A stretch of 34,576 nt of DNA from Candidatus Omnitrophota bacterium (GTDB lineage Bacteria > Omnitrophota > Gorgyraeia > Duberdicusellales > 4484-171). The stretch is taken from positions 1 through 34,576 of the forward strand of contig JBAYMZ010000001.1 of assembly GCA_041663385.1 (NCBI GenBank), written 5' to 3'. Each line of letters opens with the position of its first letter. The stretch's first letter is position 1. Under the pieces are notes generated by a model, which saw nothing but the letters and a program-made list of their open reading frames with translations, made no database searches and was not told where the DNA came from. The position numbers and the translations under genes are program-made. Positions 1 through 18,136 of this stretch are shown piece by piece.

Positions 1-92
1 CTATCGTTATACGGTTGCGTTTTAAATGACGCTTACCGCTTGACGCAACCGTAACGAGTAGCGTAACCGCAACCGATTAACACAACCCTTAA
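1..92. repeat. Family-A intergenic palindromic element (GGTTGCG/CGCAACC words), copy 1, truncated by window edge
   Basis: Perfect 11-bp stem tacggttgcgt 10-20 / acgcaaccgta 43-53. The 34-nt module 54-87 differs at only 2 positions from 6404-6437 and is about 27/34 identical to 2285-2318 (hand alignment). Confidence 0.75.
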
Positions 93-95
93 TAT

Positions 96-305
96 TTACG
101 ATTTAGTTTTTTTAGCGTACTTTTTAATAAACTTATCCACTCTACCCTCAGAGTCAACAAACTTCTGTTTTCCGGTAAAGAAAGGATGGCAATGTGAGCA
201 GATATCAACATTCAATGTTTTTCTTGTTGACCGTGTGTGCAATACGTTGCCGCAAGCGCACATAATTGTCGCCATTTCGTATTTTGGATGTCCTTTTTCC
301 TTCAT
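96..305 (-). CDS. rpmE: 50S ribosomal protein L31 (bL31)
   Basis: 69 aa with a Zn-ribbon Cys pattern (CAC...CSHC) and the HPFFTGKQ...DSEGRV...F signature of bL31. ATG at 305 is preceded by AGGAGG. Confidence 0.95.
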
Positions 306-316
306 GATTCCTCCTT

Positions 317-1579
317 TTATTTGTTTAAAGTTAATAGAAATTCTACGTTATTTTTAGTTTTCGCCAATTTTTCAATAAGAAGCTCTAAGGCCTCTACTGA
401 ACTTAATTCATTTAAGGCTTTCCTAAGCATCCAGATTCTTTGAAGTTCATCCGGATGAATCAGCAACTCTTCCCTGCGGGTGTTTGAACGCTTAATATCT
501 ATGGATGGGTAGATTCTTCTCTGGAAAATATTCCTGTCCAAAGATATTTCCATATTTCCGGTTCCTTTAAACTCTTCAAAAATTACATCATCCATTCTTG
601 AACCGGTATCAACAAGCGCGGTTGCCATAATCGTCAAAGAACCGCCTTCTTCAAGCGCGCGTGCCGCGCCAAAAAATCTTTTCGGCTTGTGCAATGCCCC
701 TGAATCAATACCGCCGGAAAGTATCCTTCCTGAATGCGGCTCAACCAAGTTGTAGGCTCGTGCCAAACGGGTGATACTGTCTAAAAGAATTACCACATCT
801 TTTTTATGTTCAATCAGCCTTTTGGCTTTTTCAATCGCCATTTCCGCAACCTGAACGTGGCGCTGAGCAGGCTCATCAAATGTCGAGCTGATTACCTCCC
901 CCTTAACTATTGCCTTCATCTCCGTTACTTCTTCAGGCCGTTCATCAATAAGCAGAACCATCAGGATTACATCCGGATAATTCTTCATTATCGCGTTGGC
1001 AACTTTTTGCAAAAGCACGGTTTTTCCACTGTAAGGCGGAGCAACAATCAAACCACGCTGACCCTTGCCTATCGGGCTCAACAAATCAAGGATACGCGTT
1101 GAAAGTTCATCCGGAGCGTTCTCTAAAATAAATCTTTCTCTCGGATATATCGGTGTAAGGTTATCAAAAAGCACCCGGTTACGCGAAGCTTCCGGATCTT
1201 CAAAGTTAACCGCTTCAACTTTGAGCAGGGCAAAATATTTTTCATTATCCTTAGGCGGCCTGATTTGTCCGCTTATCGTATCGCCGGTTTTTAAAGAAAA
1301 TTTCCTGATTTGCGAAGGCGAAACATAAATATCATCCGGCGAAGGAAGATAGTTATAGTTTGTTGAACGAAGGAAGCCAAAACCTTCCGGTAAGACTTCC
1401 AAAACTCCACTGCCAAACATCAACCCTTCTTTTTCCGCCTTAGCCTGCAAAATCGCAAAAATAAGATCCTGCTTCTTTAAGCCGGAAAGGCCGTTGATGT
1501 CGAGCTCTTTGGCCATTTTGCTTAAAGCAGAAATTTTCATATCCTTTAACGCCGCAATATCAATCGTAGCTCCTTCCAT
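317..1579 (-). CDS. rho: Transcription termination factor Rho
   Basis: Rho N-terminal/RNA-binding region ([38 protein letters not shown]), P-loop PPYSGKT, RecA-type ATPase core. The ORF track starts at ATG 1618, which has no SD and overlaps coaE. ATG 1579 has GGAGG 5 nt upstream and matches canonical Rho N-termini, so it is preferred. Confidence 0.95.
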
Positions 1580-1599
1580 AATAACCTCCGTTTTTTCTT

Positions 1600-2208
1600 T
1601 TATTGTTTGTTTTGCCATTTCATTCTATTCCATAAAGCATTAGCTTTACTTTTTAATGCTTTAATATTAGAGTTATTATTAACAACGAAATCCGCACACT
1701 TTATTTTTCTTTCAAGAGGGCTATAAAGCTTAAGCCTGGCCGAGACTTTAACCCTTGAGAGCCCTAAATTATTTTCAATTCTCTTTATAAGAATATTTTC
1801 TGGCGTATAGACTAAAATTGTCGCACAAAAAAGTTTTTCCAGTTTCTTTTCAAAAAGAAGCTGAACTTCAGCGACATAAATTCTTTTAGATTTTTTTGCT
1901 TTATTTATCCACAGTTTTAAATCTTTTATTATTTGCCCATGAACAATTTCTTCAAGGATTTTAAGTTTTTTAGGCTCGGTAAAAACTATCTCGCCAAGAA
2001 GTTTCCGGTTGATTTTGCCTTTTCTAAATACTTTTGGAAAATTTGAGGCGATTTTTTTATAAATACTGCTTTTTCTATTTTTATAATATTTATGAACCTC
2101 TTCGTCAGCGTCAAAGACTATCGCGCCTTTGGCTTTAAACAATTTAAGCACTGTGCTTTTTCCACTTGATAAACTACCGGTTAGACCGAATACTGACATA
2201 ATTTCCAT
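1600..2208 (-). CDS. coaE: Dephospho-CoA kinase
   Basis: About 200 aa with N-terminal P-loop [12 protein letters not shown] and overall CoaE-like layout. The start could also be ATG 2199. Confidence 0.85.
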
Positions 2209-2210
2209 CC

Positions 2211-2322
2211 GATTGCGTTTTTCGGTTACGGTTGCGCGACTCGTATCGGTTGCGTTTTACGTAGGACGTATAACGATAAACGAAACAAGCAACGCAACCG
2301 CAGCCGATTGACGCAACCTTAA
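2211..2322. repeat. Family-A intergenic palindromic element, copy 2
   Basis: 10-bp stem cggttgcgtt 2247-2256 / aacgcaaccg 2291-2300. An alternative outer pairing is cggttacggttgcg with cgcaaccgcagccg. The right module 2285-2318 is homologous to 54-87 and 6404-6437. Lies between the glgA stop and the coaE start. Confidence 0.75.
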
Positions 2323-2330
2323 ATAATCAA

Positions 2331-3713
2331 TTATTTTAGCGTTTGTGCTTTCTTATACATATCCATATACTTCTTCGCGGTCTCATCCCATGAAAAATTG
2401 TATCCCATTACTTTTTTCATAAGCGCAATTTGCTTTTTTTCATTTTTAAACACTGCGGCACACTTGTCTACCGCTTTAATCAAACTCTCGCTTGAATAGT
2501 TATCCAACACATACCCTCCACCTGAGTTCGCCACATCAACTACTGTATCTTTGAGGCCTCCCGTAGAATGTACAATCGGCGTAGTTCCGTATTTATAGCT
2601 AATCATTTGTGAAAGGCCGCACGGCTCAAACCTTGAAGGCATAAGAAAGCCATCACAGGCCGCGTATATGCGATGGGCGATTTTTTCATCAAAGGTTAAA
2701 TTTAAAGAAAAGGCTTTTTTAAATTTATCAGCTTTGCCTTTAAGAATCTTCTGATATTTTTCATCGCCAACACCAAGAATTACCACCTGATATTTTTTTA
2801 AAATGTAATCAAGGGAGCTGGAAAGTATATCGATACCTTTTTGCTCGGCAAGCCTGGTTACCATACCTAACATAAGCGTGCCTTTATCAACTTTGAGCCC
2901 GAGCTCTTTTTGAAACATTGTTTTATTTACGTATTTATCCTCGAGCTTCTTTACAGAATAATTTTTATAAATCAATTTATCCGCCTCAGGGCTCCACACG
3001 TCATAATCAATAGCATTAAGTATGCCTATGAGCCTGTCTCTTTTTTCTCTTAATACGCCATCAAGTCCACAGCCATAATCAGGGGTTTGAATCTGTTTCG
3101 CGTAAGTCGGGCTTACGGTATTTATAATATCCGAAAATATAAGCCCGCCCTTTAAAAGATTGATTTTGCCGTAAAATTCTAAGGCATGCATATTAAAATA
3201 ATCCCAGGATAGCCCCATAACCGGATATTTGTCTTTTTCAAATAAACCCTGATAAGCAAGATTATGCACGGTAATGGCCGTTCTTGTTTTCTTAAAAAAT
3301 TCATCGTTCTTGTAGGTTGTCTTTAAATAAATATTAACTAATGCTGCCTGCCAATCGTTGCAATGACAAACGTCAGGTTTAAATTTAAGTTTTTTGAGCA
3401 ATTCTAAAACCTGCTTGCTATAAAAAGAAAATCTCTCAAGATTATCCGGATAATCACCTTGCGGCGTTCCGTATAAAGCGTCACGAGAAAAATAATTGTC
3501 ATTTTTAATAAAGTAAAATTCTACTTTTCCTTCTTTGGTTAAACCATAATCATCAAACATTTTTTGCGGTTTAACATTCTTATAAAGCGGCATAAATACT
3601 TTTACTTCACAGCCTTTTTTGCTCAAGGCCGCGGGAAGCGCGCCGGTTACATCCGCAAGGCCGCCGGTTTTGGCATAAGGAAAAACTTCCGAAGAACAAA
3701 TAGCTATCTTCAT
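2331..3713 (-). CDS. glgA: Glycogen (starch) synthase, GT5
   Basis: N-terminal SEVFPYAKTGGLADV motif, C-terminal PSRFEPCGLSQ motif, 460 aa. ATG is preceded by AGGAGG. Confidence 0.93.
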   Translation of the reverse strand: MKIAICSSEVFPYAKTGGLADVTGALPAALSKKGCEVKVFMPLYKNVKPQKMFDDYGLTKEGKVEFYFIKNDNYFSRDALYGTPQGDYPDNLERFSFYSKQVLELLKKLKFKPDVCHCNDWQAALVNIYLKTTYKNDEFFKKTRTAITVHNLAYQGLFEKDKYPVMGLSWDYFNMHALEFYGKINLLKGGLIFSDIINTVSPTYAKQIQTPDYGCGLDGVLREKRDRLIGILNAIDYDVWSPEADKLIYKNYSVKKLEDKYVNKTMFQKELGLKVDKGTLMLGMVTRLAEQKGIDILSSSLDYILKKYQVVILGVGDEKYQKILKGKADKFKKAFSLNLTFDEKIAHRIYAACDGFLMPSRFEPCGLSQMISYKYGTTPIVHSTGGLKDTVVDVANSGGGYVLDNYSSESLIKAVDKCAAVFKNEKKQIALMKKVMGYNFSWDETAKKYMDMYKKAQTLK

Positions 3714-3730
3714 TTAAAACCTCCTTGTTG

Positions 3731-3800
3731 ATGTCTCACGTAACAGGTAACACGTATCATGTTTTTAAACGTGTTACGTGAGACGTGTAACGTGTTACAA
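3731..3800. repeat. Family-B intergenic palindromic element (GTAACACGT/ACGTGTTAC words), copy 1
   Basis: 13-bp perfect stem gtctcacgtaaca 3733-3745 / tgttacgtgagac 3772-3784. Extra register options: gtaacacgt 3747-3755 with acgtgttac at 3769-3777 or 3790-3798. Lies between the polA stop and the glgA SD. Confidence 0.75.
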
Positions 3801-3809
3801 GTATTTATT

Positions 3810-6308
3810 TCACACTTCTTTCGTATCACCCCAATTCGGGCCGGCTTCAAGATTAACCTCTAGACGCACATCAAGTTTTATGCTCTCTTCCATATTTTGT
3901 TTAACGATTTTTTTAACCGTATCCAGTTCGTTTTCCGGCACATCAAAAACCAGTTCATCATGAATTTGCATGATGAGTTTGGTTTTAAGCCTGTTTTCTT
4001 CTAACTTCTCATTTATCCGCACCATCGCCAGTTTTATAAGATCCGCGCATGAGCCCTGAATTGGCGTATTCACTGCTTGCCTCATGGCAAAATCTTTAAG
4101 CTGTAAATTCTGGCTTTTAAAATCAGGCAGATACCTTCTTCTGCCAAGAATAGTCGTAACATATCCATATTCATCAACATCCTTATAAATCCCCTGGATG
4201 TAGGTTTGCACTTTTGGGTAACGCTTGAAATAATCGCTGATAAAAATTTCCGCTTCCTGCACTCCGATATTTAATTCTTTGGAAAGCCCATACGCGCTCA
4301 TTCCATAAACTATTCCAAAATTAACTGTCTTGGCAATATTTCTCTGGTAATCATCAACGTTTTCTTCTTTTATGCCGAATAGTAGCGCCGCGGTATAACG
4401 GTGTATATCTGCTCCTTTACTGAAAGCGATTTTTAAGTTTTCATCGCCGGAAAAATGCGCAAGTATCCGCAGCTCCACTTGTGAATAATCCCCGCAAAGG
4501 ATAACCCCTTTTTCAAAGGAAGGAATAAAAGCACTTCTTAGCTGTGTAGAAAAGCTCCCTTTTATTGGTATACTTTGCAAATTCGGTGATGAACTTGAAA
4601 GCCGGCCGGTCTGCGTTTGGGTCTGGTTAAATTCTGCGTGCAGCCTTCCATTTTTTTCTTTTGCTATTTCAATAAGCGGGGCTACGTAAGTACCTTCTAA
4701 TTTATTCAACTCACGGTATTCCAGAATAAATTTTGCTATTGGATGCTTTAGGGATAATTTTACAAGCACATCTTCATTAGTTGAATAACCGGTCTTGGTT
4801 TTCTTAACCGGTGGAATTTTTAAGTCAGTAAATAGTACTGCTCCTAATTGTTTTGGGGAATTAAGATTAAATTCTTTTCCCGAAAGATTAAAAATTTCTT
4901 TTTTCAGGCCTTCAATCTTTTTTTGGACTTCTTTAGAAAGCGTAACCAGTGCGGCACTGTCCATCTTTACTCCCCACTCCTGCATTCCATATAAAACATA
5001 TACAAGCGGCATTTCAACGTTAAAAAAAAGATCTTCTAACTGGCACTCCTTTAATTTTGAAGCGAATAACTTATAAAGCCTGGCAATAAAGTATACCTTC
5101 ACCTCGGAAGGAATTTCCGAGATATATTCTCCAAGATAATGCGATGCAAGAGCCGGTAGTCCATAATCGCTAAAAGAAGAATCTAATAAATAAGCCGCGA
5201 TTTTCACATCAAACCACGCCCCAGGCATTGCCTGACAAGACGCGGAAAATTGCGCTTTAAAATCGTAAGATACTTTTTTTAACTCTGGCGACGCGAATAT
5301 ATCTTTTATATCTTCCAAAGGTATTCGATAAACAACGTCATCGTCCCCGCAAACATAAGCCATTTGATTTTCTGTGTATAGAATTATTTCCTTACTCTTT
5401 AATTTTTTCAAAAAATCCTTCGGCAATTTGTCTTTTATGTCTACCTTTACATTAAGCGCTGGCGCGGCAAAATCTTTTAAAAGGCTTTTAAACTCCAATT
5501 CCTGGAATAATTTACGTATTTCTGATTCATCTTTTTCTTTAATCATAAAATCCTGCCAGCCCAAAAGAAGGCCATAGTCGCTCAAAGTTACCAGTTCTTT
5601 GCTTAAAATAATATTTTCCTTTTCTCTAATTAATATATCCTGAATTTTTTGCGGCAATTTATCGATATTATTAAACATATTCTCAATTGTGCCAAACTCT
5701 GCCACAAGTTTTGTCGCGCTGACCTTGCCGATGCCTTTTGCTCCGGGAACGTTATCCACGCTGTCGCCGGTTAAAGCCAAATAATCGATAATTAGGCTTG
5801 GATTAAAACCAAATTCGTCTTTAAAATTATTTTTATCAATTAATTTGTCATGGACATCATCGTAAATCGCCACTTTACCCTTATCAAGCAATTGATACAT
5901 ATCTTTATCGGAGCTCACAATAACAACCTTCTTATTTTCTTTTATTGCCTTCTCGGTAATTGTCGCGATGACATCATCGGCTTCAAAACCCTCTTTCTCT
6001 ATCAGTGTAATACCTAAAAAACCTATAAGCTTTTTTATTACCGGGATTTGGCTTTTTAAGCCGTCCGGCAGCGGAGGCCTTTGAATTTTATATTCCGTAA
6101 ATTTTTCATGGCGGAATGTTTTACGCGAAACGTCAAAACATATCCCGATATAGGCCGGTTTATATCTTGTAATTATTTTTTTAATTGTCTGATAAAAACC
6201 GAATACTGCCCCGCTAGGAAAACCTTTTGACGTAGAAAGCCTTATCGCAAAAAAAGAGCGGTAACAAATGGAAGTACCGTCAACAAGATATATTGTTTCT
6301 TCAGACAT
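3810..6308 (-). CDS. polA: DNA polymerase I
   Basis: 832 aa with an N-terminal 5-prime nuclease domain and family-A polymerase motifs: DYSQVELR (A), RNIAKTVNFGIVYG (B), QIHDEL (C). Confidence 0.96.
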   Translation of the reverse strand: MSEETIYLVDGTSICYRSFFAIRLSTSKGFPSGAVFGFYQTIKKIITRYKPAYIGICFDVSRKTFRHEKFTEYKIQRPPLPDGLKSQIPVIKKLIGFLGITLIEKEGFEADDVIATITEKAIKENKKVVIVSSDKDMYQLLDKGKVAIYDDVHDKLIDKNNFKDEFGFNPSLIIDYLALTGDSVDNVPGAKGIGKVSATKLVAEFGTIENMFNNIDKLPQKIQDILIREKENIILSKELVTLSDYGLLLGWQDFMIKEKDESEIRKLFQELEFKSLLKDFAAPALNVKVDIKDKLPKDFLKKLKSKEIILYTENQMAYVCGDDDVVYRIPLEDIKDIFASPELKKVSYDFKAQFSASCQAMPGAWFDVKIAAYLLDSSFSDYGLPALASHYLGEYISEIPSEVKVYFIARLYKLFASKLKECQLEDLFFNVEMPLVYVLYGMQEWGVKMDSAALVTLSKEVQKKIEGLKKEIFNLSGKEFNLNSPKQLGAVLFTDLKIPPVKKTKTGYSTNEDVLVKLSLKHPIAKFILEYRELNKLEGTYVAPLIEIAKEKNGRLHAEFNQTQTQTGRLSSSSPNLQSIPIKGSFSTQLRSAFIPSFEKGVILCGDYSQVELRILAHFSGDENLKIAFSKGADIHRYTAALLFGIKEENVDDYQRNIAKTVNFGIVYGMSAYGLSKELNIGVQEAEIFISDYFKRYPKVQTYIQGIYKDVDEYGYVTTILGRRRYLPDFKSQNLQLKDFAMRQAVNTPIQGSCADLIKLAMVRINEKLEENRLKTKLIMQIHDELVFDVPENELDTVKKIVKQNMEESIKLDVRLEVNLEAGPNWGDTKEV

Positions 6309-6317
6309 GATAAAATC

Positions 6318-6438
6318 GTTTTACGGTTGCGGTTGCGCAGCTGGTCTCGGTTGCGTTATACGTTAATCGTCATTCATAACGCAACCGAATAACGCTTAAC
6401 GAAACGAGTAGCGTAACCGCAACCAATTAACGCAACCT
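6318..6438. repeat. Family-A intergenic palindromic element, copy 3
   Basis: 12-bp perfect inner stem cggttgcgttat 6348-6359 / ataacgcaaccg 6376-6387. Outer stem ggttgcggttgcg (within 6321-6337) pairs with cgtaaccgcaacc 6412-6424 with 1 mismatch. Tandem GGTTGCG heptamers are present. Lies immediately upstream of the polA start. Confidence 0.8.
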
Positions 6439-6523
6439 TATTTATTAGAGGATTAGCCATTAAAATAATGCGTGATTTGTTTTATCAATAATTATTAATT
6501 ATGAGGTGCTTGGCTGGAATATA

Positions 6524-7567: not shown

Positions 7568-7574
7568 TTTTTTT

Positions 7575-7603
7575 AATTTAACATAAATGGATAAAAGTGT
7601 CAA
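7575..7603 (-). promoter_or_regulatory. Putative sigma70-type promoter for the TPR gene, possibly giving a leaderless mRNA
   Basis: On the minus strand: TTGACA (7603-7598), 17-nt spacer, TAAATT (7580-7575), then AAAAAAA and ATG 7567. No SD is present. Confidence 0.4.
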
Positions 7604-7655
7604 GGATAAACACAAGTTACCACGAACTTGCAACAAATCTCCACAAATAAAGAAA

Positions 7656-7970
7656 TTATTTTGCACTTTGCGCAGGTTGGTCTACTGCGGGCGCGGCTTC
7701 CTGTTTTGCCGGCGTATCTTTATATTTATCCAACAAAGACTTTCCACGTTCTTTTGATAAATAAGCAAGAGAAATAGAAGTTATAAAAAACATGATCGCG
7801 AGGGCTACTGTTACCTTCACAAAAAAAGCGCTGGTTTTTGTTCCAAAAATAGACTCAACGCCACCTAAGGCCTCAACTAAACCGCCGGATCTTCCACGTT
7901 GGACAAGGATTGCGGCAATTAAGCCCATTACCACAAGAACATGCAGGATTAGTACTAAGTTATATAACAT
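7656..7970 (-). CDS. secG: Preprotein translocase subunit SecG
   Basis: 104 aa with two TM helices flanking a Gly-rich loop (LVQRGRSGGL...GG), typical SecG. It sits directly after tpiA, a widely conserved adjacency. Confidence 0.85.
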   Translation of the reverse strand: MLYNLVLILHVLVVMGLIAAILVQRGRSGGLVEALGGVESIFGTKTSAFFVKVTVALAIMFFITSISLAYLSKERGKSLLDKYKDTPAKQEAAPAVDQPAQSAK

Positions 7971-7971
7971 A

Positions 7972-8727
7972 TTATATAGAGTTTTTTATTATATCAGTAA
8001 AAGAAGAAACTTCAAGAGAAGCCCCTCCGACTAATGCTCCGTCAACATCTTCTTGAGCCATCAACTCTTTCGCGTTTTGCGGCTTAACGCTTCCTCCGTA
8101 AAGTATTCTTACGGTATTAGAAACGCCCTGCGAAAACCTTTCAACAATCCAGTTACGTATAAATTTGTGCACTTCCTGGGCCTGGGCGGCAGTCGCGTTC
8201 TTTCCGGTTCCGATTGCCCAAACCGGCTCATATGCGATTGTCACATTAAGCATATCTTCAATGTTTAGCTCTAATAAGCCACCAGATAATTGAGTTTTTA
8301 TTACTTCAATAGTTTTATCAGCTTCGCGCTCTTCAAGCGTTTCACCCACACAAACAATAGGTTTTAACCCAACTTCCAAAGAAACTTTTATCTTTTTATT
8401 AATGGTTGCATCGGTTTCATGAAAATATTTACGCCTTTCCGAATGTCCGATAATAACAAATTCGCAGCCGCAGTCTTTAAGCATGATCGGTGAAATTTCT
8501 CCGGTAAAAGCGCCTTCTTTTTCCCAAAATAAATCTTGAGCCCCCAATTGCATATCCGTATCGTTTATTACATTATACACCGTATTTAATACCGTAAAGG
8601 GCGGGCACAAAACAACATCCGCGGCGGTAAAATCTTTCAGAGAGGCTTTTAGCCCCGCGCTAAGCTTAACCGCTTGGTCGCTAGTTTTATACATCTTCCA
8701 ATTTCCGGCAATTAGTGGTTTACGCAT
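7972..8727 (-). CDS. tpiA: Triosephosphate isomerase
   Basis: Motifs AGNWKM, IIGHSERR, AYEPVWAIGTG, YGGSV; 251 aa. Confidence 0.96.
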   Translation of the reverse strand: MRKPLIAGNWKMYKTSDQAVKLSAGLKASLKDFTAADVVLCPPFTVLNTVYNVINDTDMQLGAQDLFWEKEGAFTGEISPIMLKDCGCEFVIIGHSERRKYFHETDATINKKIKVSLEVGLKPIVCVGETLEEREADKTIEVIKTQLSGGLLELNIEDMLNVTIAYEPVWAIGTGKNATAAQAQEVHKFIRNWIVERFSQGVSNTVRILYGGSVKPQNAKELMAQEDVDGALVGGASLEVSSFTDIIKNSI

Positions 8728-8745
8728 TGGTTAATCCTTTCTTTT

Positions 8746-8810
8746 GGTAACACGTAGCAAGCATCACGTAACATGTCTTTAAAAACATGTTACCTGTTAC
8801 GTGTAACATG
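8746..8810. repeat. Family-B intergenic palindromic element, copy 2
   Basis: 9-bp stem gtaacatgt 8768-8776 / acatgttac 8785-8793 with an 8-nt loop. An alternative pairing is cacgtaac / gttacgtg. The reverse complement shares cacgtaacaggtaaca...tttttaaa...gttacgtga with copy 1. Lies between the pgk stop and the tpiA start. Confidence 0.7.
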
Positions 8811-8816
8811 ATACTA

Positions 8817-10001
8817 TTATTTCTTATCCTGTATAATCGCAATCCCGGGAAGCGGTTTACCCTCCAAAAATTCGAGCGAGGCTCCTCCTCCGGTTGAAAC
8901 ATGCGATAATTTATCTGCTACTTTAAATTTCTTTGCGGCTGAAGCAGAATCTCCGCCGCCAACGATAACTGTAGCTTGCTTCAAATCTGCAAGGCATTTC
9001 GCTAATTCTTCGGTGCCTTTGGCGTAATCATCTTTTTCAAAAATTCCCACCGGGCCATTCCAAAGTACAGTTTTCGCATCGCTTAATTCTTTTTTAAAAA
9101 GCTCAATTGTCTTTGGGCCAATATCAACACCTAAAAACCCAGCCGGAATTTTATCGACTATTTTTTTAACCGTTGGATTTTCAAAATTGTCTATAATAAG
9201 GTGGTCTACGGGCAAAACTATTTTTACATTTTTACTTTGAGCCTCTTTTAAAATACTTTTTGCCACATCAAGTTTATCTGCCTCAACCCTTGAGGAACCG
9301 ACATCTTCACCTTGAGCTTTTAAAAATGTATAAGCCATTGCTCCGCCGATTAAAAACTTATCCGCTCTTTTTAAAAGACTCGAGATAACATCAATCTTAT
9401 CTGAAACCTTTGCACCGCCAAGGATAACCACATATGGTTTATCCGGGCAAAGCGCGGAAGATAAATATTTAACTTCCTTTTCCATCAAAAATCCGAGGCA
9501 TGACGGAAGGAATTTGGCAATTATCGTTGTTGATGCGTGCGCACGATGCGCGGTTCCAAAAGCATCATTGACGTAAACATCCGCTAAAGAGGCAAGCTCT
9601 TTAGCAAACTTTTCATCGCCGGTTTCTTCTTGGGCATGAAACCTTAAATTTTCAAGCAAAATAACCCGCTTTGAAGTTGAAGCAATTTTATTTTTTACGT
9701 CTGCGCCAACACAATCGTCAAGCTTTTCTACATCTTCGCCTAACAACTGGGCTAATTTTTTTGCAACCGGAGTCATGCGAAGACCATCAACAACTTTACC
9801 ATCCGGCCGGCCTAAATGGCTCATCAGAATAAGCTTAGAGGCTCCTTTTTCAAGCACATATTTTATCGTTGGTAATGCTTCTTTAATACGCGTATCATCC
9901 GCAATCTCACCGGTTTTCTTATCCAGCGGTACATTAAAATCAACGCGCATGATCACTTTCTTACCTTTAAAATCCATGTCTTTTACAGTTAGTTTCGCCA
10001 T
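8817..10001 (-). CDS. pgk: Phosphoglycerate kinase
   Basis: Motifs RVDFNVP, SHLGRP, AFGTAHRAH, STGGGASLE; 394 aa. Confidence 0.96.
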   Translation of the reverse strand: MAKLTVKDMDFKGKKVIMRVDFNVPLDKKTGEIADDTRIKEALPTIKYVLEKGASKLILMSHLGRPDGKVVDGLRMTPVAKKLAQLLGEDVEKLDDCVGADVKNKIASTSKRVILLENLRFHAQEETGDEKFAKELASLADVYVNDAFGTAHRAHASTTIIAKFLPSCLGFLMEKEVKYLSSALCPDKPYVVILGGAKVSDKIDVISSLLKRADKFLIGGAMAYTFLKAQGEDVGSSRVEADKLDVAKSILKEAQSKNVKIVLPVDHLIIDNFENPTVKKIVDKIPAGFLGVDIGPKTIELFKKELSDAKTVLWNGPVGIFEKDDYAKGTEELAKCLADLKQATVIVGGGDSASAAKKFKVADKLSHVSTGGGASLEFLEGKPLPGIAIIQDKK

Positions 10002-10017
10002 AGTCTACCCCTCTAAA

Positions 10018-10092
10018 TAGTAGTTTGTTGTTGGTAGTTTGTTTAATAAAAATCAAGTTTCCTTTTCAACCAACTACCAACTACTAACTACT
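10018..10092. repeat. Intergenic palindrome built on GGTAGTT/AACTACC words
   Basis: Bipartite stem: agtagtt 10019-10025 / aactact 10086-10092, and gttggtagtt 10030-10039 / aactaccaac 10072-10081. The right arm ends 1 nt from the gap stop codon. Confidence 0.7.
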
Positions 10093-10093
10093 T

Positions 10094-11240
<1,147 letters not shown>

Positions 11241-11254
11241 CTGTTACTGTTTTA

Positions 11255-12256
11255 TTACTTTACTTCCCGCAAATACTTTGCGGCCAATTCAGGCGGAGTA
11301 GCAACTACGTAGAATCCGCTTCCCCATTCAAAACCCGCAACCCTTGATAACTTCGGCATTATTTCTATATGCCAGTGATAAGACGCGTGCGTATCTGTAT
11401 TAACCGGCGACGTATGGATAATATAATTATACGGGTGCTCACCTAATACCTTTTTAAGACGGGTTAAGGAATCTTTTAAAATTACCGCGAGATCTTTTAC
11501 ACGGCTATCATCTATTTCTCCAAAATCTCTTGAATGCTCTTTTGGTATAACCCAGACCTCAAAAGAAAACCTGCTTGAAAGCGGGCAAAAAGAAATAAAA
11601 CTATCATTCTCGGCAACGATTCTTTCTTTGCCGTTTTCTTCTTCATAAGCGATCATATCGCAAAAAATACATCTTTCCCTGTATTCATAAAAATGTTTCG
11701 CGCCGTTTACCTCATCTAAAACGTTCTTAGGCACCATCGGAAGAGCGATTAACTGAGAATGCCCGTGTTCAAGGCTGGCTCCTGCATCAGCACCGACATT
11801 TTTGAAAATCAAAAGATATTTAAACCGCCTGTCTTTTCTTAAATCAAGTGTGCGGGAACGATAAGCTTTTAGCATGTACTCAACTTCTAAATCAGTAAGT
11901 TCAGGGATTCCTTTAAAATGATAAGGGCTGTCTACTATTACCTCATGCGCGCCAATACCGTTTGAAACATCATACATGCCTATCGCGTGTTTATCTAAAT
12001 CACCTTCAATTTTTAAAGCCGGAAATTTATTAGGCACAACCCGCACTTTCCAACCGGGAGTATTCGGAGCTCTCCAATTTTCTGATATCGCCTCAATTTC
12101 TGGGGGTGTCATATGTTCATTTCCATTACAAAAAGCACAATCCTTTTCACCTTTCCAGACAAAAGGAGTCACGCCGAAATCCTTCGGCAAGAATGGCTCT
12201 TCGACATTTACCACAACCCATCGGTTAACGATTGGATCTTTTCTTAAATCAGGCAT
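11255..12256 (-). CDS. galT: GalT-family (HIT superfamily) hexose-1-phosphate nucleotidyltransferase / NDP-sugar phosphorylase, catalytically canonical paralog
   Basis: CAFC zinc motif followed by TPPE, and the HGHSQLIA (HxHxQ) active-site motif; 333 aa. Substrate (UDP-Glc/Gal-1-P versus ADP-Glc phosphorylase type) cannot be decided by eye. Confidence 0.85.
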   Translation of the reverse strand: MPDLRKDPIVNRWVVVNVEEPFLPKDFGVTPFVWKGEKDCAFCNGNEHMTPPEIEAISENWRAPNTPGWKVRVVPNKFPALKIEGDLDKHAIGMYDVSNGIGAHEVIVDSPYHFKGIPELTDLEVEYMLKAYRSRTLDLRKDRRFKYLLIFKNVGADAGASLEHGHSQLIALPMVPKNVLDEVNGAKHFYEYRERCIFCDMIAYEEENGKERIVAENDSFISFCPLSSRFSFEVWVIPKEHSRDFGEIDDSRVKDLAVILKDSLTRLKKVLGEHPYNYIIHTSPVNTDTHASYHWHIEIMPKLSRVAGFEWGSGFYVVATPPELAAKYLREVK

Positions 12257-12288
12257 AATATTATTTTAATTATTATATATTAAAATTT

Positions 12289-12352
12289 CTAATTGCTAAT
12301 GACAAATGACTAATTAATGTCTAATTTTCTAATAACTAATGGCTTAGACATT
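12289..12352. repeat. Intergenic element: six CTAAT words plus a 9-bp inverted repeat
   Basis: CTAAT at 12289, 12296, 12310, 12321, 12329 and 12336. aatgtctaa 12316-12324 pairs with ttagacatt 12344-12352. Ends 1 nt from the stop of the second GalT paralog. Confidence 0.6.
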
Positions 12353-12353
12353 T

Positions 12354-13361
12354 TTACACTTTCGTTTCAGCTAAGAACTTGGCTGTTTCTTCCGGAAGCG
12401 TCGGGCAAATATAGAATCCGCTTCCCCATTCAAAACCCGCAACCTTTGTTAAGCGGGGAGTAATTTCAATATGCCAGTGATAATCCTCTTCAATTGTCGC
12501 CCAATAGCCTGGATACGATCTCCTGAAAGGCGCGGTATGCACTACATAATTATACGGAGGATCATTAAGTAAAACTTTTATTTTAAGAAGGACTTTCTTA
12601 AATACTCTTGCCAGGCCCCCTACGTTTCTATCGCAAACCGTATAAAAATCAGGAGAATGATCTTTGGGCAGTAGCCAAACTTCAAAAGGAAAACGGGGGG
12701 CAAAAGGAACAATCGCCACAAATCCATCTTCATCTAAAACAACGCGAGAGCCATCATTAAGCTCTTGACGGATAATATCACAAAAAATACATCTTTCGTG
12801 ACGATTATAGTAAGCCTTGGCTCCTTCCAATTCCTCTTTAACTCTTTTTAAATTAACCGGAGTGGCTATAAGCTGAGAGCGCGCGTGTTGTAATTTGCCG
12901 CCGCCGGCATCCCAGCCGTAATTTTTAAATGCCAGCACATATTTAATGCGATTGTCTTTACTTAGTTCTTTAAAACGCAAACAATAAGTCTGCAAAACAT
13001 CCTTAACCTGGTCTTCTCCTAAATCCGCAAGATTTGCTATATGATCGGGAGTTTCTATTACTACTTCATGGCTGCCGACCGCGTTTATAAGGTCATAAGG
13101 CCCTTTGCCTTTTTTCCATAATTCCGCGTTTAAATTCAAAAATGGCGATTGACTGGGAATAACTCGGACCCGCCAATTACCATTATTATCTTTTATAGAA
13201 AAAATTTCAGGCGGGGTTTGGCTTTCCTTGCCCCGGCAAAAAGGGCAATCTTCCGTAACAGGGGAAGACTCTACGTGCGGAAAATCTTTTGGCCTTTTAG
13301 CTCTCTCGGTTGAAATTATAACCCATCTACCTAAAATCGGGTCCTTTCTTAATTGCGGCAT
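12354..13361 (-). CDS. GalT-family paralog with the nucleophilic His replaced by Arg (HARSQ)
   Basis: Same fold signatures as 11255-12256 (CPFC...TPPE, GFEWGSGFY C-terminus), but the active-site motif reads QHARSQLIA. I checked the codons on the DNA: CAC GCG CGC. Confidence 0.85.
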   Translation of the reverse strand: MPQLRKDPILGRWVIISTERAKRPKDFPHVESSPVTEDCPFCRGKESQTPPEIFSIKDNNGNWRVRVIPSQSPFLNLNAELWKKGKGPYDLINAVGSHEVVIETPDHIANLADLGEDQVKDVLQTYCLRFKELSKDNRIKYVLAFKNYGWDAGGGKLQHARSQLIATPVNLKRVKEELEGAKAYYNRHERCIFCDIIRQELNDGSRVVLDEDGFVAIVPFAPRFPFEVWLLPKDHSPDFYTVCDRNVGGLARVFKKVLLKIKVLLNDPPYNYVVHTAPFRRSYPGYWATIEEDYHWHIEITPRLTKVAGFEWGSGFYICPTLPEETAKFLAETKV

Positions 13362-13427
13362 ATGTTTTTAGTTTACTGCTTGCTGCTAACAATGTATTTT
13401 TATTGTAAAAGGCAAGTTAACCGTGAT

Positions 13428-13455
13428 ATTATAACAACCGTAAAGCAAATTGCAA
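13428..13455 (-). promoter_or_regulatory. Putative sigma70-type promoter upstream of the GalT paralogs
   Basis: On the minus strand: TTGCAA (13455-13450), 16-nt spacer, TATAAT (13433-13428). About 65 nt upstream of ATG 13361. Confidence 0.45.
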
Positions 13456-13462
13456 GAAAATT

Positions 13463-13499
13463 ATAACCATTTCCGGCCTCGTAAGTTGGAAATGGTTAT
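13463..13499 (-). terminator. Putative intrinsic terminator of tyrS
   Basis: Perfect 12-bp stem ataaccatttcc 13463-13474 / ggaaatggttat 13488-13499 with a 13-nt loop. It starts 4 nt after the tyrS stop and is followed on the transcript by AAUUUUCUU. Confidence 0.5.
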
Positions 13500-13503
13500 T
13501 TAA

Positions 13504-14697
13504 TTACAAGGTAACCCTGAGGAACTTTTTCTTCCCTATCTTAAGGGCCAAACCGTTTGAAGGTATTTCCAATGCGGCGTTTTTGACGGTTCCGCTATCG
13601 GATGAACCGCCCATAATGGAAATACTGCCTTGCGCCAACAGGCGGCGGGCTTCGTTTTTGGAAGTAACTATTTTTGCGATAAAAAGCACTTCTATCAAAT
13701 CCACAGGTGAGCCTTTGGCTTTATATAAAGGCATATCCTCGGGTATTTCTTTTTGCGAAAATATTTTTTCAAACTCTTCCTTTGAAGATTTACCCATTGC
13801 TTTTGAATAATAGAACGAAACAATTGTTTCAGCTAGTAGCAACTTTGCAACTTTAGGATGCATTTTTTTGGCGGCCTCGCTATCACAATCCGTAAGCAGC
13901 CGGAAATATTCCCACATTACTTCGTCAGAGATGCTCATTATTTTTCCAAACATCGTTTTGGGCTCATCGGTTACGCCGATATAATTACCCAAAGATTTAG
14001 ACATTTTATTTTTTCCGTCAAGGCCAACAAGAAGCGGCATGGTAACGATGCTTTGGGGAGGTTTGCCAAAAACTTCTTTTAAATGCCTGCCGACAATTAG
14101 ATTAAATTTCTGGTCAGTACCTCCAAATTCTATATCCGCATCCACCACCACAGAATCATAACCTTGTATTATAGGATAAACCAGTTCTAAAATCGTAAGC
14201 GGCCGGTTCTCCTTCATGCGCAAAGAAAAATCATCTCTTTCTAAAATTCTTGCGACAGTGTAAGAAGAAAGCAAGGAAAGAAATTTTGATATATCCATTG
14301 ACTTATACCAGGAACTGTTAAATTTAACTTCGGTTTTTTTCTCATCAAGAATTTTAAAGGCTTGTTCTGTATAAGTTGCAGCGTTTTCTTTTATCTCTTC
14401 ATCACCTAAAACCGGGCGCAGTAAAGTTTTTCCGGAAGGATCTCCGATTTTAGCCGTAAAATCACCGATAATTAAAATTACCGTATGCCCCAAATCCTGT
14501 AATTTACGCAGCTTACGTAAAAGCACCGTATGCCCCAAATGGATATCTTTTGCGGTAGGGTCAAATCCGATTTTTAATTTAAGCGGTTTTTTACTTTTTA
14601 GGGAATTTTCTAAATTGGTAAGCAGTTCAGCTTCAGAAATTACGTCAACGGCGTTTTCTTTTATGCAATCAAAATGGCACTGTATTTCCTTGTTCAC
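13504..14697 (-). CDS. tyrS: Tyrosyl-tRNA synthetase
   Basis: Class-I signatures HLGH and KMSKS, GDFTAKIGDPSGK, and a C-terminal S4-like domain. The start codon is GTG (14697) with AAGGGAG upstream. Confidence 0.95.
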   Translation of the reverse strand: MNKEIQCHFDCIKENAVDVISEAELLTNLENSLKSKKPLKLKIGFDPTAKDIHLGHTVLLRKLRKLQDLGHTVILIIGDFTAKIGDPSGKTLLRPVLGDEEIKENAATYTEQAFKILDEKKTEVKFNSSWYKSMDISKFLSLLSSYTVARILERDDFSLRMKENRPLTILELVYPIIQGYDSVVVDADIEFGGTDQKFNLIVGRHLKEVFGKPPQSIVTMPLLVGLDGKNKMSKSLGNYIGVTDEPKTMFGKIMSISDEVMWEYFRLLTDCDSEAAKKMHPKVAKLLLAETIVSFYYSKAMGKSSKEEFEKIFSQKEIPEDMPLYKAKGSPVDLIEVLFIAKIVTSKNEARRLLAQGSISIMGGSSDSGTVKNAALEIPSNGLALKIGKKKFLRVTL

Positions 14698-14720
14698 CGG
14701 GACAATACTCCCTTTATTTT

Positions 14721-14826
14721 ATGTTACGTAGGTTACGGGAAGTTACGAAGGTTACGGATGTTACACCTAAGACCTCGTGTTTAGTGTAACCTTCGCAACC
14801 TACGTAACATTCGTAACTTTCGTAAC
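14721..14826. repeat. Intergenic element: five GTTAC words at 9-10 nt period followed by five G(T/C)AAC words at 9 nt period
   Basis: GTTAC at 14723, 14732, 14742, 14751 and 14760. GTAAC at 14786, 14804, 14813 and 14822, plus degenerate GCAAC at 14795. Stems: gttacgtaggtt / aacctacgtaac (12 bp) and gaaggttac / gtaaccttc (9 bp). Abuts the rpsA stop codon. Confidence 0.8.
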
Positions 14827-17810: not shown

Positions 17811-17981
17811 TTAGTATTGCCAGGCTTTAGCTTCGAACACCGATAGGTTCTTTTCATCATAAACCCGCCCGGCATAGTTAATGTAAGTTTTACCGGGAAC
17901 AAATTTATCTTTGGTTTTGGTAAAGTAATATTTTTTTACCAGTTCTAAAATTTTACTGCGGATAATGCTTTCTTGGCTCAT
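17811..17981 (-). pseudogene. N-terminal remnant (56 codons) of an RfbH/DdhC-like (DegT/DnrJ/EryC1 family) NDP-hexose 3-dehydratase/aminotransferase gene
   Basis: My translation is MSQESIIRSKILELVKKYYFTKTKDKFVPGKTYINYAGRVYDEKNLSVFEAKAWQY*. The ...I.E.V..YY......F.PG.T.INYAGRV.DE... pattern matches RfbH N-termini from memory. The remaining ~380 aa are missing. Confidence 0.55.
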
Positions 17982-17996: not shown

Positions 17997-18112
17997 TCCC
18001 TCGCAGAAATCCTCGGGCTTTAGGCCAACAGGCCACCCTGTTGGGTAGCCCGTAGGATGAATGGATGTTATGATTTCTGCTCGGGAGGAAGCCCCGGTCT
18101 TTAGACCGGGGA
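17997..18112. other. GC-rich multi-hairpin element (candidate structured RNA or REP/MITE-like remnant)
   Basis: Nested stems: gcagaaatc 18003-18011 / gatttctgc 18072-18080; cctcgggc 18011-18018 / gcccgtagg 18048-18056 (1 bulge); ccaacagg 18025-18032 / cctgttgg 18037-18044. A separate hairpin is ccccggtc 18092-18099 / gaccgggg 18104-18111. Clearly more GC-rich than its surroundings. Confidence 0.6.
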
Positions 18113-18136
18113 GACTTCACTAAATTATTAACTAAT

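Follow-up and report, generated by a model that had tools for sequence, protein, structure and literature searches.

Hairpins located between cistrons, such as the REP sequences of malE-malF in E. coli, the RNase III sites of the phage T7 early mRNA and those of the Zymomonas gap-pgk operon, set segmental mRNA stability, a function that has been shown experimentally. Tandem heptanucleotide repeats are known from the cyanobacterial STRR sequences, which are intergenic, lie near start codons, have a patchy distribution and lack a demonstrated function. The TAACTGA heptanucleotides of the Beggiatoaceae are likewise intergenic and near start codons, with a patchy phylogeny and no demonstrated function (MacGregor 2015, PMC4679880), and in BOGUAY 169 direct sets compare with one indirect repeat (PMC4679880). 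In Xanthomonas and Nostoc, the words GGGAATC and GGGGAYT form tandem intergenic heptamer arrays, including convergent inverted pairs (Rehm et al. 2015, PMC4692102), so that a heptamer inverted-array architecture has already been described for the Xanthomonas repeats. These arrays lie at most 50 bp from stop or start codons, 70-75 inverted pairs per genome could form a stem-loop or cruciform, and no function has been identified; the Xanthomonas heptamers favour aligned ORFs, are rare between divergent ORFs and are mostly transcribed (PMC4692102). REP, BIME and REPIN sequences are extragenic, high-copy and hairpin-forming, with doublets of about 100 nt (Bertels & Rainey 2011, PMC3116915; Di Nocera et al. 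2013, PMC3733652); they are found mostly between unidirectional or convergent ORFs, downstream of coding regions, and have been proposed to stabilise mRNAs (PMC3116915; PMC3733652).

The window studied here is a stretch of 34,576 nucleotides from a Candidatus Omnitrophota bacterium. Gene calls place every gene of the locus at 1-14826 on the minus strand, and the spacers between them hold the elements collected in Table 1. These elements fill what little space separates a stop codon from the following SD, and they constitute repeat families at the DNA level, found in other spacers and other genomes and, at orthologous sites, present in some relatives and missing from others. They are probably dispersed repeats of the foldback type, akin to REP, REPIN and MITE elements, with arms assembled from heptamer modules; they would be transcribed together with the operons that contain them, and they are distinct from canonical terminators. 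An initial annotation had described nine long palindromes with tandem-repetitive arms in these spacers, an observation that is largely real.

Table 1. Genes, repeat elements and transcription signals of the locus, in window coordinates
Feature	Position	Strand	Location and basis
rpmE	120-305	-	followed by rho, coaE, glgA, polA, TPR, secG, tpiA
Gene order after tpiA		-	pgk, gap, galT x2, tyrS, rpsA
F1 (GGTTGCG) copy	1..102	-	spacer downstream of rpmE; 3' part lost at window edge
F1 copy	2211..2318	-	fills glgA>coaE spacer; 108-nt hairpin, 41 bp
F2 (GTAACAC/GTGTTAC heptamer)	3733..3798	-	polA>glgA spacer
F1 copy	6310..6441	-	TPR>polA spacer; ends 1 nt before polA ATG
Promoter-like TTGACA-17-TAAATT	7575-7603	-	upstream of TPR gene; promoter scan
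F2 element	8747..8814	-	pgk>tpiA spacer; starts 2 nt after pgk stop codon
F3 (GTAGTTN/NAACTAC heptamer)	10019..10092	-	gap>pgk spacer; 1 nt after gap stop codon
F4	11171..11244	.	+ (template) strand heptamers GGGTACA/GGGTTTA/GGGAACA/GGGTATA and one inverted copy; sequence, TRF period 7/14
F5	12289..12352	.	direct ATTAG (CTAAT on +), 7-nt phase; galT1>galT2 spacer; no inverted arm
Promoter-like TTGCAA-16-TATAAT	13455-13428	-	promoter scan, 10/12 with TG; downstream of 13463-13499 hairpin
Terminator-like hairpin	13463-13499	-	RNA fold
F6	14723..14826	-	five GTTACGNNN nonamers, then five inverted; rpsA>tyrS spacer; begins 0 nt after rpsA stop codon

Folding of the mRNA-sense strand, with z computed against 200 dinucleotide shuffles per spacer, identifies seven of the nine listed spacers as true long imperfect hairpins (z -2.4 to -7), and the same seven also fold as single-stranded DNA. 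The three F1-bearing spacers reach z -2.4 (1-119, where the element is truncated by the window edge), -6.7 (2209-2330) and -5.4 (6309-6450), the two F2 spacers -3.0 (3714-3809) and -4.0 (8728-8816), the F3 spacer -4.35 (10002-10093) and the F6 spacer -6.4 (14698-14826), the last folding into 6-bp helices with 3x3 internal loops between them. Two of the nine claimed palindromes do not beat their shuffles: the F4 spacer (11147-11254; z -1.5, not significant), in which four direct units face a single inverted copy, and the F5 spacer (12257-12353; z -0.9), which is not a palindrome. Read from the sequence, the plus strand of F4 is a G3N4 x4 quadruplex-type motif; a G3-type word, GGGAATA, also builds an array in L023. 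Alternative pairing registers exist in the elements, as had been anticipated.

An autocorrelation test on ten long spacers within 1-14826 reveals clear 7-nt periodicity in seven of them, six with z 3.6-5.4 (among these F2, 5.4 and 3.9; F3, 3.7; F5, 4.5) and the F4 spacer with z 3.0. The signal is marginal in the F1-bearing spacers 1-119 and 6309-6450 (z 2.2 and 2.1) and is not seen in the terminator spacer 13362-13503 (z 1.7), while the period in 14698-14826 is 9 nt (z 6.3). The 7-nt match fraction of the periodic spacers is 0.41-0.57; in coding sequence it has a maximum of 0.41 and a mean of 0.26 (141 windows of 100 nt). Period 7 also accounts for 25 of the 37 significant periodicities among 400 spacers from 80 pgk-centred loci, and inverted arrays of this kind are also seen in loci of Terriglobales, Elusimicrobiota and Planctomycetota. 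The arms are tandem-repetitive, as initially annotated, but with a dominant period of 7 (9 in one family) and not a continuum of 7-10 nt. Similarly, several words do coexist, but instead of one word per spacer there are six families over nine spacers, F1 occurring three times and F2 twice.

The distance from the stop codon to the 5' base of the hairpin is 0-12 nt in six elements and that from its 3' base to the next start codon is 1-32 nt, with tails that hold an SD and lack a U tract. This bears out the view that the elements sit close behind the upstream stop, end before the next SD and are not canonical intrinsic terminators. It could be argued that they are nevertheless intrinsic terminators without a U tract or Rho-related pause sites, each gene being its own transcription unit, since the long stable stems stand right behind stop codons and a rho gene is present in the window. 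This appears very improbable, because the 1-32 nt that remain, with the SD, leave no room for a promoter, and the only promoter-like sequences that relatives conserve lie before galT1 and the TPR gene. The former is conserved in the related contig L088, and the latter is kept in the secG>TPR spacers of L082, L084, L085 and L088. Furthermore, the sole terminator-like hairpin, already singled out in the initial annotation and recovered in the fold, looks different from the elements; together with the promoter-like sequence next to it, it likely marks a transcription-unit boundary upstream of galT1. Gene layout and the periodicity scan also agree that the glycan operon is devoid of such spacer elements.

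The words define at least six repeat families with further members in other spacers and in genomes of related Omnitrophota; cross-genome matches score 50-95, shuffled sequences reaching no more than 28. The F1 profile is matched by nhmmer at 90-2 on the minus strand (E 5.8e-19), in the glgA>coaE copy on both strands (E ~1e-22) and in the TPR>polA copy, which holds the conserved core GGTTGCGGTTACGCTACTCGTTTCG (E 2.6e-28) and has an orthologue in L088; the three window copies are 68% identical when aligned, and the two F2 copies 81%. F6 is found at rpsA>tyrS in the window and at polA>glgA in L085, which are non-orthologous spacers, with a symmetric change from 5+5 to 3+3 units. A GATGC family is shared by L084 glgA>coaE and L085 rpmE>prfA, and F5 has a counterpart array in the L088 rpmE>prfA spacer that lies the other way round (score 57; highest background score 28).

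Some relatives carry another word at the orthologous site. L088 has a homologue of F2 in its polA>glgA spacer and F3 at gap>pgk, where L084 has the word NNNATCA, and glgA>coaE holds four different words in four genomes. At pgk>tpiA, F2 is also found in L084. Relatives had been named in the initial annotation as the place to look for such structures, and they answer both ways: families recur in them, while L082 and L086 have the same operons with orthologous spacers of 14-49 nt that hold no element. Spacers with elements measure 92, 117 and 101 nt at gap>pgk and 89, 86 and 110 nt at pgk>tpiA, as opposed to 49 and 46 nt, and 24 and 26 nt, respectively, for the empty ones in L082 and L086. These clean pairs of empty and filled sites occur only between genomes with 15-30% gene difference. 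As neither a transposase nor a target-site duplication or an excision intermediate turned up, the case for mobility is a distributional one.

Exact matches to the F1 core pattern occur in at least 119 metagenome stretches. F1 combines a non-repetitive conserved 25-nt core with a conserved 3' block, is often nested within other inverted heptamer arrays and has a core spacing partly in 7-nt steps (47, 54, 61). Among the matches listed, the contigs that bear it span 37-66% GC.

Such a distribution bears on whether the elements could be a local mutational by-product, in which heptanucleotides slip in situ and template switching creates the inverted arm, with neither mobility nor function. Heptanucleotide repeats have been reported as the most abundant class of long SSRs in many bacterial genomes and have been explained by polymerase slippage (Mrazek et al. 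2007, as represented in PMC4679880), period 7 dominates across the phyla examined, unit number differs among copies, and direct-only arrays exist, both in the window (12289-12352) and in L043 (about 20 units). Even so, a purely local origin seems quite improbable, given the F1 core and 3' block in at least 119 separate stretches and the identical families at non-orthologous spacers; members with identical non-repetitive cores at unlinked loci of a single genome are partly seen here. Moreover, L001, an independent near-identical contig, differs from the window by 13 SNPs, all genic and none in repeats, and no change in unit number or length was seen between their arrays. Because the unit numbers are identical, the arrays are not hypermutable on short time scales, which weighs against the foldback-repeat reading too.

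With regard to the RNA level, the heptamer-periodic spacers found in pgk-centred loci lie between co-directional genes in 27 cases, between convergent ones in 2 and between divergent ones in none, compared with 254, 72 and 74 for all spacers (p 2.4e-4 and 0.0046). The gene-orientation classes of F1 among the matches listed are 20 (++), 8 (--), 8 (+-) and 8 (-+), so that its 28:8:8 ratio of co-directional, convergent and divergent contexts resembles that of all spacers; in co-directional contexts, the core is sense in 20 and antisense in 8 of the matches listed (p 0.036). The co-directional bias (27 of 29), together with this 20:8 ratio, hints at some transcript-level constraint. The elements may accordingly be viewed as primarily selected RNA stem-loops, namely upstream-cistron stabilisers, RNase III or RNase E sites or read-through attenuators, whose repetitiveness is incidental. 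Expression tuning in galT-gap-pgk-tpiA-secG and neighbouring operons would be the corresponding role. Besides these biases, their position, from 0-12 nt behind a stop codon to just ahead of the SD, fits this proposal, as do a slight sense-strand G-U excess in the MFE folds of most window elements (G-U allowed) and the hairpin, heptamer-built or ordinary, that stands behind gap in several genomes of Omnitrophota and Terriglobales. It is nonetheless unlikely as the primary explanation. The same operons run with empty spacers in L082 and L086, family members are found either way round, some of them between divergent or convergent genes, and two of the nine window elements have no significant fold. 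In an energy-independent alignment of the arms of 17 pooled elements, G-U mismatches (21) equal A-C mismatches (20). Covariation, put forward earlier as a check, was sought in an alignment of 35 F1 copies and yielded no compensatory change in the core, all 13 pairs being invariant. The mismatch balance and this invariance lend no specific support to selection for RNA processing or stability, a role that the elements, as intercistronic hairpins, may nonetheless have.

An F1 core that is conserved in sequence without covariation is also what a protein recognition site would show. The omega repressor of pSM19035, a ribbon-helix-helix protein, binds contiguous 7-bp heptads in direct and inverted orientation, a format that the contiguous direct and inverted units of the elements resemble by analogy. 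A protein partner has been speculated for the Nostoc heptamer repeats (bioRxiv 10.1101/2022.06.06.494920). Arrays bound by ribbon-helix-helix or nucleoid-associated proteins, forming a nucleoprotein complex at gene boundaries, are however very improbable: at least six unrelated words in 15 kb, and more in relatives, would require many cognate proteins, sites are missing from relatives, and no recurrent neighbouring gene was found among the F1 metagenome matches listed. The helical-phase iterons suggested initially are disfavoured because the dominant period is 7 nt and not 10-11 and six words coexist within 15 kb.

Read as dispersed foldback-type repeats, the elements form several non-coding families 65-130 nt in length, in which both arms are built from tandem 7-nt modules (9 nt in one family), the second running as the inverted complement to the first. 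They may have spread via a transposition-like or recombination process, with arms that would grow or shrink in 7-nt steps through slipped-strand events; the two arms might stay alike because of correction within the element or because pairing is selected. Being located inside operons, the elements are presumably co-transcribed, and each upstream cistron would then carry, at its 3' end, a long imperfect stem-loop. A 3'-exonuclease barrier or processing site is the most plausible proposal for its role, and the compact fold may make insertion within an operon tolerable. The initial judgement that function is not decidable from sequence alone holds.

The Galileo transposase belongs to the P superfamily. 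Foldback and Galileo elements (for example PMC3573991) likewise have inverted arrays of short sub-repeats as arms, variable arm length and a fold-back of the whole element, but they are eukaryotic and kilobase-scale, have known transposases and contain sub-repeats of 10-31 bp or more, so that the resemblance is an analogy of architecture only. The elements share with intercistronic hairpins of E. coli, T7 and Zymomonas the position right behind a stop codon; unlike them, they are known from sequence and lack an RNA-specific evolutionary signal in the G-U/A-C balance and the F1 alignment. In common with REP, BIME and REPIN sequences, they form several families per genome of extragenic, plausibly transcribed hairpins. 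REP monomers are, however, palindromes of 20-40 bp with short stems and an unpaired GTAG or CGTC tag, whereas no such monomer is found here and the arms are heptamer arrays. STRR and TAACTGA repeats are also tandem heptanucleotides concentrated in intergenic regions, but essentially as direct arrays of one or few words, while an inverted, hairpin-forming arrangement dominates here. The heptamers of Rehm et al. are alike in their 7-nt tandem intergenic units, inverted pairs and preference for aligned ORFs (PMC4692102), and the window element at 11171-11244 and the L023 array share a G3-type word with the Xanthomonas repeats. Xanthomonas, though, has one dominant G-rich word per genome, read as a G-quadruplex former (PMC4692102), in contrast to the at least six coexisting and mostly non-G-rich words here, of which F1, at least, combines a long non-repetitive core that is conserved with a broad spread across metagenomes.

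The repeat-filled spacers of the window are real, and their contents are better described as dispersed repeats of a foldback type that form several families, have arms made of heptamer modules and lie in minimal Omnitrophota operon spacers. The genes concerned follow the order rpsA, tyrS, galT, galT, gap, pgk, tpiA, secG, TPR, polA, glgA, coaE, rho and rpmE, all on the minus strand, and the elements are therefore to be read on that strand. Six of the elements start 0–12 nt from the upstream stop codon, and after every element the next start codon follows within 1–32 nt, a distance too short for a promoter, which places the elements within transcription units. Promoter-like sequences kept across relatives were found only ahead of galT1 and ahead of the TPR gene. 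A terminator-like hairpin is followed by the promoter-like sequence TTGCAA-16-TATAAT, which is kept in the closest relative (L088). Ahead of gap lie two galT-like paralogues in tandem, of 333 and 335 aa, an arrangement kept in all related genomes. The window is a contig of a Candidatus Omnitrophota MAG (ENA ERZ27247350; further source metagenomes ERZ27247363 and JGI 3300029288), and NCBI lists its exact Pgk protein under this name. A near-identical ENA contig (L001) differs from the window by 13 SNPs, every one of them within genes.

The hairpins and the periodicity of these spacers exceed chance. Folding of the mRNA-sense strand was compared with 200 dinucleotide shuffles (see table), and on these z-scores seven of the nine listed spacers form long hairpins beyond chance. 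The initial annotation had counted nine long palindromes, and this count stands except for the G3N4 spacer and the CTAAT spacer. The window hairpins are 65–130 nt long, and the elements fold as single-stranded DNA too. A clear 7-nt autocorrelation was present in 7 of the 10 long spacers tested in 1-14826 (z 3.0–5.4), with a 7-nt match fraction of 0.41–0.57 in periodic spacers versus never more than 0.41 in 141 coding windows. Period-7 rows were also returned by TRF, and one family has a period of 9.

Features of the window, with fold z-scores against dinucleotide shuffles and periodicity z-scores
Coordinates	Feature	Fold z	Periodicity	Remark
1-119	F1-bearing spacer	-2.4	7 nt, marginal, z 2.2	element truncated at window edge
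2209-2330	spacer	-6.7		
3714-3809	spacer	-3.0		
6309-6311	polA start region			
6309-6450	F1-bearing spacer	-5.4	7 nt, marginal, z 2.1	
6442-6523 (-)	first ~80 nt after TPR gene	-0.6		folding not significant
8728-8816	spacer	-4.0		
10002-10093	spacer	-4.35		
11147-11254	spacer with G3N4 array (F4, 11171-11244)	-1.5		not significant
11255-13361	tandem galT-like paralogues			
12257-12353	spacer with CTAAT/ATTAG array (F5, 12289-12352)	-0.9		direct repeats only
13362-13503	terminator spacer		no 7-nt periodicity	
13463-13499	terminator-like hairpin			
14698-14826	spacer with nonamer element (F6, 14723-14826)	-6.4	9 nt, z 6.3	
17811-17981 (-)	56-aa ORF			no Pfam match
17997-18120	G+C-rich stretch, ~125 nt	-5.7 and -5.4 on the two strands		-63 kcal/mol; no Rfam match

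A role as canonical intrinsic terminators, which the initial annotation had already discounted, was rejected, as the element tails (ATTTAGAGGGG, CAAAAGAAAGG, ATAAAATAAAGGGAG and similar) contain an SD and lack a U tract; a scan for terminators called no element. Integron attC sites do not account for them either, since their ends do not fit the RYYYAAC/GTTRRRY core sites, the flanking housekeeping genes are syntenic with their order kept across six genomes, and the window holds no integrase. The readings as a CRISPR array or as helical-phase iterons were rejected on anatomy.

The glycan operon is indeed free of such elements, as had been noted from the sequence, with spacers of at most 57 nt and no periodicity. 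A gap of 393 nt separates a flippase-like gene for polysaccharide synthesis from the glycan gene that follows, and in it the G+C-rich stretch of the table forms two hairpins, one of them CCCCGGTCTAAAGACCGGGG. The same gap contains the 56-aa ORF (MSQESIIRSKILELVKKYYF...), which we take to resemble the N-terminus of DegT/RfbH-type aminotransferases and which could be a gene remnant.

The same families are found at different sites and in different genomes. The three GGTTGCG elements of the window (family F1) align at 68% identity and the two GTAACAC elements (F2) at 81%. The proposal of a different word for each spacer thus holds only in part: six words do occur within 15 kb, but F1 occupies three spacers and F2 two, and families recur elsewhere. 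Syntenic loci of five related Omnitrophota (L082, L084, L085, L086 and L088) were compared, with Pgk at 84–88% identity to that of the window and genes at 65–87% nucleotide identity. At these orthologous sites the elements are either present or absent. The gap>pgk spacer (named in transcription order) measures 92, 117 and 101 nt with an element, and in L082 and L086 its length is 49 and 46 nt; for pgk>tpiA the lengths are 89, 86 and 110 nt versus 24 and 26 nt, and for galT>galT 97 and 294 nt versus 21, 40 and 14 nt. At three spacers the family in the window is also that of L088, namely F3 (GTAGTTN) at gap>pgk, F2 at polA>glgA and F1 at TPR>polA. L084 differs at gap>pgk, where its word is NNNATCA, and glgA>coaE holds four heptamer words in four genomes (GGTTGCG, NNGATGC, CAGAGNA and AGAAACC).

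Families also match at non-orthologous spacers, with local alignment scores of 50–95 against a shuffled maximum of 28 when all spacers were compared with each other. In the GTTACG nonamer family, the window has 5+5 units at rpsA>tyrS and L085 has 3+3 units at polA>glgA. The GATGC family occupies glgA>coaE of L084 as well as rpmE>prfA of L085. The CTAAT array of the window, which is not palindromic, finds its match in rpmE>prfA of L088, in the opposite orientation. The F1 copies of the window and L088 match at differing spacers. L084 and L085 (ENA ERZ27247363 k141_2442605) were considered as near-identical strains with different elements, but their identity is 100% over pgk-tpiA and ~80% elsewhere (76–87% from secG onward), so that L085 is either an assembly chimera or a recent recombinant between two Omnitrophota species; the pair therefore allows no conclusion on rapid turnover.

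Around polA, two further observations were made. This gene has no recognisable Shine-Dalgarno sequence in 6/6 genomes (the window and L082-L088), and in the window and L088 an F1 element ends 1–10 nt ahead of its ATG. The first ~80 nt after the TPR gene (TATATTCCAGCCAAGCACCTCATAATTAATAATT...) are conserved in all six genomes and the rest of the TPR>polA spacer differs among them; the conserved segment could be a polA promoter or leader, or else the place where the TPR gene really ends.

F1 is widely distributed, and what is conserved in it is the sequence, not the structure. Its core GGTTGCGGTTACGCNNCTCGTNNCG, common to copies from three genomes, is matched exactly by at least 119 JGI metagenome contig stretches; the 80 F1 loci among the matches listed represent many samples, and the G+C of their contigs runs from 0.37 to 0.66. 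GGTTGCGGTTACGCNNCTCGT and GACGAAACGAGCNGCGCAACCG are conserved core blocks of F1. In an alignment of 35 copies, the 5' core and the unselected 3' block GACGAAACGAGCnGCGCAACCGAT are equally conserved, with a variable centre and CG or ACG returning at 7-nt intervals. The distances between two F1 cores fall into classes of 47–49, 54, 61, 78–81, 87–88 and 104–107, partly a 7-nt ladder, and F1 is often centred in another inverted heptamer array (for example in the contigs L102, L137, L144 and L146). A profile search of 1.38 Mb of loci that were not pattern-selected found F1 only in the window, L088/L089 and L084, and it is absent from IMG/VR, PLSDB and phage GenBank records. With the gathering score of Rfam 15, neither the window nor eight F1 loci gave a match, and at E<=1 only chance matches to miRNA-precursor hairpins appeared. 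As far as checked, F1 is apparently undescribed, with no Rfam family and nothing in literature searches, and is spread widely among uncultivated bacteria of 37–66% GC. In the high-GC F1 contig L120, the named homologues of DnaJ are all below 50% identity, and a spread of F1 itself across phyla is therefore only a possibility.

With regard to gene context, crude ORF calling among the matches listed gave 20 ++, 8 --, 8 +- and 8 -+ cases. The resulting spacer classes (28:8:8) equal the background proportions (254:72:74), so F1 alone has no bias towards aligned ORFs, and sense exceeds antisense modestly (20:8, p 0.036). The ++ spacers are taken up by the element itself, with the stop codon 9–31 nt before the core and the next start codon 95–135 nt after it. 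No recurrent neighbour gene or transposase was present near F1 in the 80 loci listed, the loci examined showed no related autonomous IS with matching ends, and the flanks of ~20 copies, judged by eye, are AT-rich with inconsistent junctions and no clear TSD. One nearly identical F1 sub-family (…CGTTTATTGTCTTTCGGTTACGTC…) always lies after CAGCAGACCAGGGAACGAATATCC; it includes L092, L093, L103, L119, L122, L140, L148, L153, L158, L167 and others, has in common a low-complexity ORF, probably spurious, that forms a cluster of 8 loci, and could belong to a larger composite repeat.

Whether selection acts on RNA or on DNA was approached from several sides, and nothing specifically indicates selection at the RNA level. 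When the arms of 17 pooled elements were aligned without energy rules, the mismatches readable as G-U numbered 21 for the sense strand and 20 for the antisense strand, folding energies of the two strands did not differ consistently, and elements occur in both orientations. RNAalifold found 13 core pairs in the 35 F1 copies, all invariant and with zero compensatory changes, and an alignment of 12 short copies gave 19 pairs, one with a double change; this covariation check speaks neither for nor against a selected structure. An RNA effect of the elements may exist all the same.

Similar architecture is found beyond the window. Among the 37 significant periodicities (z >= 3.5) of 400 spacers from 80 pgk-centred loci, 25 are of period 7, the others being of period 9 (n=5), 8 (n=3), 6 (n=2), 5 (n=1) and 10 (n=1). 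The periodic spacers, in counts that include orthologous and thus non-independent spacers, are co-directional in 27 of 29 cases, convergent in 2 and divergent in none, versus 254/72/74 overall (co-directional enrichment p 2.4e-4, divergent absence p 0.0046). Among other Omnitrophota, L006 and L025 have tandem heptamers followed by their inverted complement in a long hairpin directly after a stop codon. Direct-only heptamer arrays are found in L043 and L046. Four Terriglobales (L015, L017, L019 and L035) carry inverted AGTGGCT/AGTGGTC arrays in gap>pgk, ~110 nt upstream of pgk, where other Terriglobales have ordinary GC-rich hairpins or almost no spacer. An Elusimicrobiota locus contains GGGAATA x9 plus its complement, a Planctomycetota locus the same inverted-array architecture as nonamers, and L064 (Verrucomicrobiia) a nonamer array. 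L043 (Ca. Aadella gelida) also has, at 7921-10255, a perfect hairpin TAGTAGCTGGGGTTTAAACCCCAGCTACTA in three successive spacers beside long heptamer arrays, which include ~20 direct ACGAATT units; this hairpin looks like a second, array-associated kind of dispersed repeat.

These observations suggest elements that would spread in a transposition-like manner, whose arms would grow by 7-nt slippage plus inter-arm correction, and which may act as intercistronic RNA stem-loops. A possible, if rather doubtful, generalisation is that inverted arrays of 7-nt modules constitute a distinct class of prokaryotic foldback mobile elements across several phyla, including the widespread F1, moved by a DNA transaction with a 7-nt ruler, which may be a dedicated transposase or recombinase, or a cycle of polymerase slippage and template switching. 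If true, such a class would give a mechanistic answer to the excess of heptanucleotides in bacterial genomes, of the unexplained kind noted since 2007, with the Xanthomonas inverted pairs known since 2015. The window and its relatives offer a compact comparative system, in which one operon has empty spacers, ordinary hairpins or foldback elements of different families, and the conserved F1 core can be traced through metagenomes. Element gain and loss, 7-nt arm growth and the effect on polycistronic mRNA are thereby opened to test. Moreover, when operons or terminators are predicted, or ncRNAs sought, in MAGs from uncultivated phyla, such elements can mislead.

Several known systems resemble these elements in part. 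With the eukaryotic Foldback and Galileo transposons the analogy is one of architecture only. For MITEs, which have terminal inverted repeats plus a target-site duplication, the comparison covers the arms, which are inverted here, and the F1 flanks with their inconsistent junctions. REP, BIME and REPIN sequences (PMC3116915, PMC3733652) are likewise extragenic, multi-family, presumably mobile hairpin doublets dispersed in many copies, as seen for F1 in its metagenome stretches and its three window copies. However, the 20–40 bp palindromic REP monomer with an unpaired GTAG or CGTC tag is missing in the F1 alignment and the window elements: GTAG occurs only within paired F3 heptamers, and the CGTY present in F1 has no 8–9 bp stem after it. 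REP and REPIN sequences also go with a cognate RAYT (Y1 transposase) gene that they flank, and near F1 no neighbour gene recurred in the 80 loci listed.

The elements consist of head-to-tail 7-nt units in at least three copies, as do the heptameric long simple-sequence repeats (Mrazek 2007; Rehm 2015). PMC4679880, citing Mrazek et al. 2007, states that among the long SSRs of many bacterial genomes heptanucleotides are the most abundant class, and that polymerase slippage has been suggested. Experimental work on Nostoc heptamer repeats is still speculative on mechanism (bioRxiv 10.1101/2022.06.06.494920). In Xanthomonas, GGGAATC heptamers form 70–75 convergent inverted pairs per genome, favour aligned ORFs, are rare between divergent ORFs and lie near stop and start codons; most copies are transcribed, and their function was not identified (Rehm et al., PMC4692102). 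The preference for aligned ORFs and the scarcity between divergent ORFs are shared by the periodic spacers, but not by F1 alone. Unlike the heptameric class, with one dominant GGGAATC-type G-quadruplex word per genome, the window holds six words in 15 kb, and a G3N4-type word only at 11171-11203. The element containing it is of the same G3N4 type as the Xanthomonas repeat, and the inverted GGGAATC pairs of Xanthomonas (PMC4692102) are the closest described relative.
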